64,000 nt of DNA. Origin: a virus. Lineage: Duplodnaviria; Heunggongvirae; Uroviricota; Caudoviricetes. Within the stretch, counting starts at the first letter, position 1; each line of letters starts with the position of its first letter. Where the stretch lies: positions 8,034-72,033 of IMG/VR virus record IMGVR_UViG_2703718814_000005, one strand, 5' to 3'. Positions 58,601-61,600 of this stretch are shown here, in pieces. The position numbers are program-made.

Positions 58601-61600
58601 ACCGTTTGCCTAAAGTTGTTCGCAAGATGCATGTTTAAAACATTCTGGAGCGGGTATGGATCGAGAGTTAAAAAATCTGACGCTGAATATCAGTCAACTG
58701 GCGGCATTGTCAGGTGTACATCGCCAGACTGCTGCGGCAAGGCTGCAAAATCTACCCGTTGCAGGGGGGCATGAAAGCAACCTCAAGCTTTATCGGGTGG
58801 TTGATATTGTGTCGGCATTTCTGGCATTACCACCGCCGGTTGCAGAAGGCGAAATGGACGCGCATGAGCGCAAAGCCTGGTATCAGTCTGAACGTGAGCG
58901 TCTTAAGTTCGAACAGGAAACGGCACAACTCATTCCGGCCAGTGATGTCAGACGGGAGTTTGCCATCTGGGCAAAAGCGGTCGTGCAGGTGCTGGAGACA
59001 TTACCGGATATTCTTGAACGTGACTGCGGTCTGCAGCCTGCCGCTGTGAGCCGTGTTCAGTCCATTATTGATGATCTGCGCGATCAGATAGCCCTGCGGG
59101 TGACTGAAGCAGGTGCGGATGATGAGGAGGAATTACAGCAGGAGGAGTAATGCTGAATCAGGAAACCGCAAAGGCAGCACGAACCGATTCAGGTTATATC
59201 CTTCGCGCACCGAGACGAATGCGGGTTGCTGATGCCGTTGCTCAGTATATGCGGGTGCCCATGGGGGCAGGGAACTCAGTCCCGTGGGATCCGCTGGTGG
59301 CACCGTATGTTATTGAGCCTATGAACTGCCTGGCCTCGCGTGAATACGACGCAGTGATATTTGTTGGCCCGGCACGAACCGGCAAGACTATCGGCCTGAT
59401 TGACGGCTGGGTGATTTACAACGTGATTTGCGATCCTGCTGATATGCTGATCATTCAGATGACGGAGGAAAAAGCCCGCGAACACTCCAAAAAACGACTC
59501 GCCAGAACGTTTCGCGTCAGCCCGGAAGTGGTCAGTCGCCTGAGTCCGAACAAAAATGACAACAACGTTTATGACAGAACATTCCTTGCTGGCAACTACC
59601 TGAAAATCGGCTGGCCGTCAGTCAATATCATGTCTTCATCAGATTATAAATGCGTGGCGCTGACGGATTATGACCGTTTTCCGGAAGATATTGATGGTGA
59701 GGGGGATGCCTTCTCTCTTGCCTCAAAACGTACCACCACATTTATGTCCAGTGGTATGACGCTGGTGGAGAGTTCCCCCGGCAGGGATGTGAAGGATGTG
59801 AAATGGCGACGGACTTCACCGCATGAGGCTCCACCAACCACGGGGATCCTGTCGCTCTATAACCGTGGCGATCGCCGTCGCTGGTACTGGCCCTGTCCAC
59901 ACTGTGGTGAGTATTTTCAGCCCTGCGGCGATGTGGTTGCTGGTTTCCGTGATATTGCCGATCCTGTGCTGGCAAGTGAGGCGGCTTATATTCAGTGTCC
60001 TTCCTGTTCAGGACGGATTTTGCCTGAACAAAAACGCGAGCTGAACGGACGTGGGGTCTGGTTACGGGATGGTGAATCCATCAATGCAGATGGCAGTCGT
60101 TATGGTGATCCCCGGCGTTCACGTATTGCGTCATTCTGGATGTAGGGTACATTTCTTACCTGTTTGTATGTTCTGGTGTCGTTTCATAGTCTTTTCAATG
60201 AGTTGTGATTTTATGAGTTTCCTCTCTTTGCTTGATAATGAGTTAGTTTATCGCTTGTTATTGGCTTGAATGGACTACATGACGGACTAAAAAATGAGGG
60301 CGATAGATGTCGGTAAAGCCATTAACCGTGACTGAAGTTAAGGGGATGAAACCACGTGAAAAGGACTATGCCGTTTATGATGGGTTCGGTTTATTGCTGA
60401 ATGTGAGTAAAGCCGGTGGGAAAGTGTGGCGTTTCCGTTATAGCCATCCGATAACGAAGAAACGGCAGACATACACGATAGGACGTTTTCCTGAATTCTC
60501 ACTCGCGGAAGCACGGGAAGTACGTGATGAACTTCGGCGAATGATTGCACGTGGAGTTGATCCAGTGACGGAGAAGAAAAATCGTAAAATTGAGATGTCA
60601 CTAAAAAATCTACAGACATTTGAAGCTATTGCTAATGCATGGTTCGCTTTTAAAAAGGGATCTGAATTGCGGAAACCTACACTGTATAATATCGAATATG
60701 AAGTATACAAATATCTTGTTCCTTTCTTTGGTAAGTACAGTATAGAAAAAATTACAGCACCAGTAGCTATTAATGCTCTGGATGCCGTATCCGATAAGAA
60801 TGCGTTGCAAAAAAAATTAATATCAAGATTAAATGAAATTATGAATTATGCTGTAAATTGTGGAGCATTGAAAGCAAATCCATTACTTAAGATAAAGACT
60901 GCATTCACAGGAAAGAAAAATAAATCATTAGCAGCACTACCTGTTGAAAGATTGCCTGAATTTCTGAGCTGGTGGGATAGTGTGCCTCATACCTATCAAA
61001 TAGCTCATAATGCACTTTTATTCCAGATATTGACAATGGTCAGGCCAGGTGAGGCGATTAAAGCAGAGTGGTCAGAGATTGATTTTGATTCTGGCTTGTG
61101 GATTATCCCCGCGCATAAAATGAAATGCCATCGTGAACATGTTGTTCCCTTGTCATCACAGGCTATTAGTATCCTCAGAACAATGCAGGAAATAAAAAGA
61201 GGGCGTTATGTGTTTTTTTCCTCCAGAACAAAAGATGCGCCTATGGGGAGGAATACTATCAAGACCCCAATTGCTGCCAGCAAGTTCAAAGGGATTGTAA
61301 CGTTACATGGTTTTCGTTCGATGTGGAGTACGCTTTTAAATGAGGAGGGATTTAACCCCGATGTAATCGAGGCTGCATTGGCGCATAAAAGTGGTGATAA
61401 AATAAGAGATATTTATAATAGAACTACTTATCTAGAACAGCGTAAGATCATGATGCAATGGGTCGGTGATTTTTTTGATGATGCGAGAAAAGGGGTAATT
61501 AATAGATCCGGTGGTATGAAAGGTTTAAGAGTAGTAAATGGTTGAGGAGGTTCAGCAAATGAATACCAATGAAGATATTTTATTTACTAAAGACGTAATG

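Follow-up and report, generated by a model that had tools for sequence, protein, structure and literature searches.

The element described in this study, a satellite lying within a phage packaging gene, has its closest described counterparts among the phage-inducible chromosomal islands (PICIs) of Gram-negative bacteria, in which int is followed by alpA, a pri/rep module is present, transcription runs rightward, and elements of about 10–15 kb carry no lysis or tail genes (PMC6092414). A more specialized group, the helper-embedded PICIs (HE-PICIs) of Tommasini, Mageeney & Williams (2023), was founded on Eco567.11capE (11capE below) in E. coli NRG857c, and in the HE-PICI that was studied, excision after induction restored the interrupted late gene (PMC10111431). 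In the only published account, helper-embedding is the work of one integrase clade, marked by an arm motif that is unique to it (PMC10111431). The locus examined here lies within a window of 64,000 nucleotides, the whole stretch of DNA that was analysed (positions 8,034 to 72,033 of IMG/VR record IMGVR_UViG_2703718814_000005). In it, the large terminase subunit gene (terL) of a Qin-like lambdoid prophage next to rspB is very probably split by a PICI-type satellite that entered by site-specific recombination. The arrangement is of a known kind; the integrase lineage, the target site and the arm motif are outside the published description.

The helper terL fragment (59150..60145, + strand) consists of codons 1–331 followed by a TAG supplied by the element. 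The ORF contains VGPARTGKT and CPHCGE and ends in ...SRIASFWM before the stop. Its GpA_ATPase domain is complete (residues 41–304, profile positions 2–247 of 247, E=2.8e-72, Pfam) and was the sole match in a Pfam scan of the 331-aa product, no nuclease domain being found; the two-domain layout of the GpA family, with ATPase and endonuclease in one protein of 640–700 aa, is thereby lacking. The missing part is found beyond the element. In JNEC-KY179 (locus L001), the complete genome closest to the window and 99.9% identical over window positions 38999–63257, the terL remainder occurs 9.5 kb downstream, annotated as 'terminase gpA endonuclease subunit, missing N-terminus', and is followed by gpW-like, portal, ClpP-capsid and tail genes. 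Joining window positions 59150–60142 to L001 30646–31755 at CTGGATG gives an ORF of 700 aa with GpA_ATPase at residues 41–304 and GpA_nuclease at 326–644, which places the cut between the two domains, near position 6 of the nuclease profile. An earlier reading of this DNA (the sequence-only reading) had described a terminase that stops at codon 331, at roughly half its expected length, and both statements agree with the intact gene. A naturally short terminase was considered and ruled out, as intact 700-aa homologues are common.

The reconstructed terL showed 0 mismatches over 2103 nt to the intact terL of JNEC-KY208, the window fragment corresponding to nt 1–993. JNEC-KY208 carries the same prophage (its DUF1441, portal and capsid proteins are identical) with an uninterrupted terL. 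Alignment to the intact gene, as the sequence-only reading had recommended, located the breakpoint between codons 331 and 332 (...SRIASFWM/EGP), with CTGGATG as the core. Of 5426 complete E. coli genomes, 1828 have the 800-nt reconstructed attB without interruption, and the homology of such empty sites to attL ends, and to attR begins, exactly at the core. Comparison of attL, attR, attB and the reconstructed attP gave a crossover core common to attL and attR at 60136..60142 (+). The attL sequence is GCGTCATTCTGGATG/TAGGGTAC and that of attR is CTTCTTCCTGGATG/GAGGGGCC; the attB junction reads GCGTCATTCTGGATGGAGGGGCC (allele-dependent), and the attP junction CTTCTTCCTGGATGTAGGGTAC, CTTCTTCCTGGATGTAGGGTACATTTC. 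Direct repeats had been suggested as a further check; no long ones were found flanking the element, because the att sites are identical over 6–7 bp only, and the 114-nt repeat returned by the direct-repeat search represents the two cos-like copies described below. The spacer before the integrase gene had been proposed as a place to look for an att core. The core is at 60136–60142, and 60143..60306 (+) is the element-derived P' arm of attL, with a doubled GGACTA at 60272–60277 and 60284–60289. Since the element provides a TAG directly after the core and no substitute 3' half, the helper can make no complete large terminase while the satellite is integrated.

Insertion at this position has occurred repeatedly and in many different helpers. 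The int-alpA module was detected in 90 of the 5426 complete E. coli genomes (84 of the 90 covering at least 80% of it), and the attR junction, with the missing terL half beyond the element, in 79 of the 5426. The codon at which attL lies is shared by all nine E. coli copies that were inspected, IS1-deleted remnants included. A further 42 loci came from an exact-pattern search with the element half of attL, so that 53 attL junctions were surveyed altogether, and 50 of them are in GpA-type terL, with at least 12 different flank sequences. Among 11 representative TerL fragments that were translated, protein identity was 69–100%, and all except one end in SRIASFWM. The same terL codon and core are used by the related integrases of Salmonella (77% identical) and Rahnella (68% identical), and in the Salmonella relative the C-terminal part of terL lies 10.2 kb downstream. 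The helpers include several Qin-like prophages and the Stx1a prophages of O157:H7 and O145:H28, which have differing replication modules; stx1A/B lie 6–7 kb upstream of the satellite in O157:H7 ECP19-198 (L002 11487–12713) and O145:H28 12E115 (L085 4231–5457).

These data decide between the two alternatives that the sequence-only reading had left standing, an insertion into the packaging gene or a deletion that fused two elements. The insertion was borne out by the terL remainder across the element and its mismatch-free rejoining, and the same observations exclude the deletion. On the latter explanation, the junction between a decaying prophage and an unrelated integrative element was created by a deletion or by illegitimate recombination, and secondary IS1-mediated deletions have indeed removed, in some copies, the right-hand portion of both element and prophage. 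However, even the deleted copies retain an identical attL, the terL remainder stands at the other element end in 79 genomes, the rejoined halves form an intact natural gene, and at least 12 diverged terL alleles, as well as three genera, share the breakpoint. A deletion fusion is therefore given a negligible probability, and site-specific insertion is retained.

The three remaining junctions show where else the integrase can act. Two of the 53 are in the terL of a Mu-like prophage and one is chromosomal and intergenic. In metagenome/Logan contigs (L105 5393–7121, and L108), the Mu-like terL holds an integrase that equals the window's in all 412 of its 412 residues and has the same attL arm. 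The interrupted gene belongs to phrog_2 and is preceded by Mor, lysozyme and Mu gp27; its junction is ttcatcCTGGATG/taggg, and the reading frame differs from that at the GpA site. One integrase is thus found in two unrelated terminase families. The chromosomal copy (L118 900–1330, IMG/VR) lies in an intergenic position about 260 nt downstream of a LysR-type gene, with the junction tttgtcactttt/TGGATGtaggg, and is an apparent off-target integration. A further variation was seen in O121:H19 strain 16-9255 (L086 12990–13000 and ~23185; also L132), where attL has an extra T to the left of TGGATG and attR one C fewer, each junction thus differing by 1 nt from the others; the 5' terL fragment of this allele is frameshifted now and would still be so after excision.

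The element itself is a Gram-negative PICI, and is helper-embedded by its orientation with the late operon, int, alpA and the primase gene being co-oriented with terL (+) in the window and in all six other loci compared (L001–L003, L085–L087). Copies are 9.5–10.8 kb long, intact ones 10.4–10.8 kb. In intact copies the order is int, alpA, Bro-N, a divergent ylcI/icd pair and several small genes, followed by DUF4222, a primase with D5_N/DUF5906/Pox_D5 domains, an 81-aa gene and SSB, and finally a late zone with a ClpP-capsid fusion, sometimes a DUF1441 homologue, and a conserved 93-aa gene (phrog_1561). Genes of structural type are limited to the ClpP-capsid fusion, 51–57% identical to that of the helper, and the DUF1441 homologue, 68% identical. 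All the organizational features listed for Gram-negative PICIs are present. Two cos-like copies that are 75% alike (L001 28066–28179 and 29748–29861) are also found in the element, one ahead of the ClpP-capsid gene and the other ahead of the DUF1441/93-aa genes, and both are homologous to the helper region just 5' of DUF1441, where cos is expected.

Two side observations concern the satellite of Rahnella, which occupies the same terL site. It has a BrnT/BrnA toxin-antitoxin pair in its Bro zone (L094 11512–12178), and genes with DUF4145 and pP_pnuc domains (L094 15899–17428) in the place of the replication or late genes of other elements. Defence cargo is a possible reading of these genes.

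The description of the insert as P4-like, which had been offered by the sequence-only reading, holds for the integrase family and not, in the strict sense, for the element. P4 is similar in its integrase family, in the tandem 12-bp arm sites that flank the core, in an AlpA/Vis-type excisionase and in its D5-type primase. It differs in having sid, psu, delta, epsilon, the CI RNA and P2 as helper, where the present element has a lambdoid helper and lacks those genes and that RNA, and in integrating into tRNA-Leu, which it restores, whereas the satellite disrupts a phage gene. It could be argued that this is nevertheless a true P4-type satellite dependent on a P2-like helper, and that the terminase gene was a secondary site hit by chance. 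The integrase is of the P4 family (32% identity to P4 Int) with an attP arm layout in common, the primase has D5_N/Pox_D5 domains like the P4 alpha protein, and occasional off-target insertions occur (L118). Yet neither the annotation nor the Pfam/PHROG scans, for the proteins they covered, showed homologues of sid, psu, delta or epsilon, and an Rfam scan over L001 20000–31800 gave no match even at E<=0.1, and so no C4/isrK immunity RNA of the P4 type; the PICI gene order is as given above. The cos-like sequence and the homologues of capsid and small-terminase-position genes come from a lambdoid helper and not from P2, and 50 of 53 junctions at one terL codon are unlike chance. A P4-type identity is accordingly regarded as highly improbable, and the element is treated as a PICI in what follows.

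Compared with PICIs such as EcCICFT073 (Fillol-Salom et al. 2018, PMC6092414), the element is alike in int-alpA, rightward transcription, a primase-type module, a length of about 10 kb and late genes of the capsid family, and a dependence on a cos-type lambdoid helper would also be shared, judging from the cos-like sequence. The difference is one of location: the EcCICFT073-type islands sit in chromosomal genes (near phoQ, in fis or hpt) and meet their helper in trans, while this one is inside the helper's own packaging gene. In that respect the HE-PICIs are closer. The gene order of 11capE (int, an alpA-type HTH gene, a Bro zone with ylcI/icd, DUF4222, primase, SSB, late genes) is held in common, the primases are 43% identical, and the interrupted late gene, the co-orientation of key genes and the four zones (integration, Bro, replication, late) are all matched. 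A cos-like sequence common to the helper and occasional off-target insertions are seen in both. The split gene and its expression conditional on excision also recall active lysogeny, or regulated gene integrity (PMC7192596); unlike in active lysogeny, the split gene belongs to the helper phage and the arrangement would serve the satellite, not the cell, as has been argued for HE-PICIs (PMC10111431).

The departures from the published HE-PICIs lie in the integrase, its site and its arms. The window integrase is 22–25% identical to 11capE Int, and its BLASTP score of 86.7 bits (25% identity) places it outside the HE-PICI clade, which is defined by at least 400 bits to that protein (PMC10111431). 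The terminase sites of HE-PICIs are A:Terminase_1:132 and :246, while the target here is the start of the GpA_nuclease domain in a GpA-family terL. This site is not among the 14 published ones, and the complete attL/attR supplementary files (PMC10111431) contain neither 'gpa' nor the attL core, the island spreadsheet having been covered in part; a full-text literature search returned no later report of such an element. In the reconstructed attP, doubled hexamers with a 12-nt period are found at −86/−74 (GTACTA/GGACTA) and +132/+144 (GGACTA twice) from the core centre, positions equivalent to the annotated doubled 12-bp arm repeats of P4. HE-PICIs have a doubled arm motif, tgTGTATTGCantgTGTATTGCa, at −81 and +132, so the positions are matched and the motif is not: it is G(G/T)ACTA here, and the HE-PICI TGTATTGC is absent. 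GGACTA is kept in the Salmonella, Rahnella and Buttiauxella relatives despite differing surrounding sequence, as would be expected of arm-type integrase sites. In the left attP arm, adjoining the doubled GTACTA/GGACTA, the sequence TAGGGGGCATAA (L001 30580–30591) differs from the P4 arm-type repeat TTGGGGGCATAA at a single position out of 12; the chance expectation in the arms is estimated at about 0.002, and the sequence is absent from the Salmonella relative.

When integrases were sought among representatives with one genome per species, the nearest were at most 40% identical and adjoined tmRNA or tRNA genes. A large protein database, in turn, contained a graded series at 44–87% identity from Enterobacterales, so that the species-representative scan alone would have given a wrong picture of an isolated integrase. 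The relatives read for context, ten in all and at 44–77% identity, each lie directly downstream of a co-oriented phage late gene, with satellite genes of the alpA/DUF4222/primase type following int. Coverage of PHROG profiles by the gene halves was used to assess interruption; a k-mer join search for attR in distant relatives was swamped by chance fusions into long ORFs. Seven of the eight upstream late genes scanned were truncated: a tail gene (phrog_1072; L092), a protease-capsid fusion (L095), a major capsid gene (L098), a baseplate wedge gene (L100), a portal gene (L101), a J-like tail protein gene (L102) and a Mu-type terL (L105), the complete one being that of L096. For two of them, L092 and L095, the rest of the profile was recovered on the other side of the element. 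GpA-type terL fragments precede int in L090 and L094, and in L103 the stretch from Nu1 to int is uncalled, its end reading like lambda-type gpA.

In a neighbour-joining tree, these integrases form one group, sister to the t(m)RNA-targeting (CP4-57-like) integrases, and the window integrase is far from 11capE; identities within the group are 28–34% to P4 Int and 20–24% to 11capE Int. On balance, this favours a second integrase clade, apart from the published one and related to the tRNA/tmRNA-targeting CP4-57 type, with a systematic preference for late genes. The confidence placed in it is modest because the tree is crude (few taxa, without support values) and both gene halves were verified for three targets only.

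How such a composite would work can be outlined by analogy with 11capE. Upon prophage induction the composite would replicate, and late transcription could read through into int-alpA. Int and AlpA, the latter acting as the helper-induced activator that it is in PICIs, would then excise the satellite and restore terL. The satellite would replicate from its own primase, and the helper terminase, once restored, would package it at its cos-like sites into capsids that may include the satellite's own ClpP-capsid fusion protein. The statement of the sequence-only reading that an insertion would cripple the prophage is too strong as a generality, since the studied HE-PICI excises upon induction and restores its late gene (PMC10111431).

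A number of observations weigh against this outline, or narrow its reach. Contig LOIO01000045.1 (GCA_001607355.1) ends with the 10,920 nt of window positions 53081–64000, at 100% identity, and stops exactly at 64000; the assembly break therefore falls inside the satellite, and the right end of the window's copy is taken from its relatives. Promoter and terminator scans were crude consensus scans, and between the terL stop and int they returned no promoter-like or terminator-like site. No excised form was recovered by an exact search for the attP junction in IMG/VR and JGI metagenome contigs, and none of the deposited phage genomes has the int module. The JNEC-KY179 copy is degraded, lacking SSB and having its ClpP-capsid gene in two fragments and an IS3 in a tail gene of its helper, and several other copies have IS insertions or deletions. 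Many copies are probably no longer mobile.

The insertion could accordingly be a dead-end scar, with satellite and prophage both defective, the terminase staying broken, the arrangement playing no part in regulation, and the prophage being domesticated by insertional inactivation. Besides the internal deletion of the element and the disrupted tail gene in JNEC-KY179, and the attP form missing from IMG/VR and JGI contigs, this is favoured by O157:H7 ECP19-198, where IS1203 lies in the helper capsid gene and an element gene is frameshifted, by the O121:H19 junction indel, which would leave terL frameshifted once excised, and by the fact that the HE-PICI authors also recovered no virions (PMC10111431). 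On the other hand, most copies, that of the window among them, have an intact int and alpA (at least 80% of the module is covered in 84 of the 90 genomes), copies with the full gene complement exist, and without recent mobility the element could not have come to occupy so many unrelated helper alleles, serotypes and genera. As a general account, the dead-end scar is thus rather unlikely, and it bears on the activity of individual copies, not on the identity of the element. Many copies are visibly decayed, so that any single one may be inactive at present.

The remaining features of the window agree with a satellite inside a lambdoid late operon. The DUF1441 gene (58656..59150, +; Pfam DUF1441, E=2.7e-41) occupies the small-terminase position and was immediately 5' of terL in each helper examined. 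Together with the Qin-type lysis and cold-shock genes that are also upstream of the terL fragment, it identifies the surrounding DNA as a lambdoid prophage beside rspB. Directly 5' of it lies a putative helper cos region (58441..58597, +; L001 19442–19598), which is 74–88% identical to two segments within the late zone of the element in relatives. It has a GC-rich GGGCGG run that we take to resemble lambda cosN, and by its sequence the stretch may serve as cos.

On the element side, the spacer between the terL stop and int is 161 nt long (60146–60306), in agreement with the gap of about 160 bp, followed by a 412-aa P4-family integrase, that the sequence-only reading had reported; the AlpA, terminator, Bro-N and divergent regulator/Icd-like features that it listed next were likewise all recovered. 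The tyrosine integrase of the P4/CP4-57 family (60307..61545, +; 412 aa) has Arm-DNA-bind_3, Phage_int_M and Phage_integrase domains (Pfam), and its long start is supported by an arm-domain match that begins at residue 6 and by GAGGG 6 nt before the ATG. The gene for the AlpA-type HTH excisionase/activator (61538..61762, +; phrog_66 'excisionase and transcriptional regulator', E=1.7e-7, and a weak HTH_17 match) directly follows int, the same position as in Gram-negative PICIs (PMC6092414); its RefSeq relatives use a start at 61559. After it comes a hairpin resembling an intrinsic terminator (61776..61796, +; L001 22777–22797), ACCCCGCGTGCAATGCGGGGT followed by TTTTTTG, with a 9-pair stem. The Bro zone holds a Bro-N/anti-repressor-like gene (61822..62403, +; Bro-N E=1e-18, phrog_2593 E=6.9e-85). 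A small gene of 75 aa (62796..63023, −; a hypothetical protein in L001) had no family match in the Pfam/PHROG scans, and is followed by a gene of the YlcI/YnfO family (63081..63386, −; 101-aa product, also on record in contig LOIO01000045.1, phrog_6522 E=1.6e-55, RefSeq name in L001), divergent from the rightward operon. That operon, which leads toward DUF4222 and primase, opens with the Icd-like gene (63583..63783, +; phrog_6196/phrog_1743 E=1.2e-45), the RefSeq relatives of which are named 'host cell division inhibitor Icd-like protein', and continues with the start of the next small replication-zone gene (63780..64000, +; 98.4% to L001 24742–24997, a phrog_1478 protein). The window thus covers the integration and Bro zones and the beginning of the replication operon.

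Two features of composition were seen in this part of the element. The G+C content of the int-alpA-bro segment is 37–41% (L001 21500–23000, window 60500–62000), compared to 47–57% in the flanking terL and the remainder of the element. Window positions 63258–63744, the regulatory region between ylcI and icd, did not align to the otherwise 99.9% identical JNEC-KY179 locus, and no complete RefSeq E. coli record covered more than 75% of 62300–64000. The limited coverage is due to the ylcI-icd regulatory region, which is mosaic relative to every complete genome; elements that are nearly identical elsewhere have exchanged it.

Where an integrase gene comes after a truncated terminase gene, the usual reading is prophage decay; here the pattern represents a nested and possibly reversible composite of two elements, carried by 79 to 90 of the 5426 complete E. 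coli genomes, including Stx1a prophages of major STEC serotypes that would otherwise be scored as packaging-defective. A satellite in the packaging gene of Stx1a-converting prophages (O157:H7, O145:H28) could gate the production of Stx1 phage, and should it make terminase expression later or weaker, the yield of Stx1 phage and transduction could change. If the second integrase clade is real, satellites are embedded in terL (GpA- and Mu-type), capsid/protease-capsid, portal, tail and baseplate genes across the Enterobacterales, and convergence would have produced helper-embedding at least twice; late-gene tropism would then be selected by lifestyle and not be peculiar to one enzyme lineage. The use by one integrase of two terminase families, at the same short core and in different frames, offers a route to study how phage targets are acquired.

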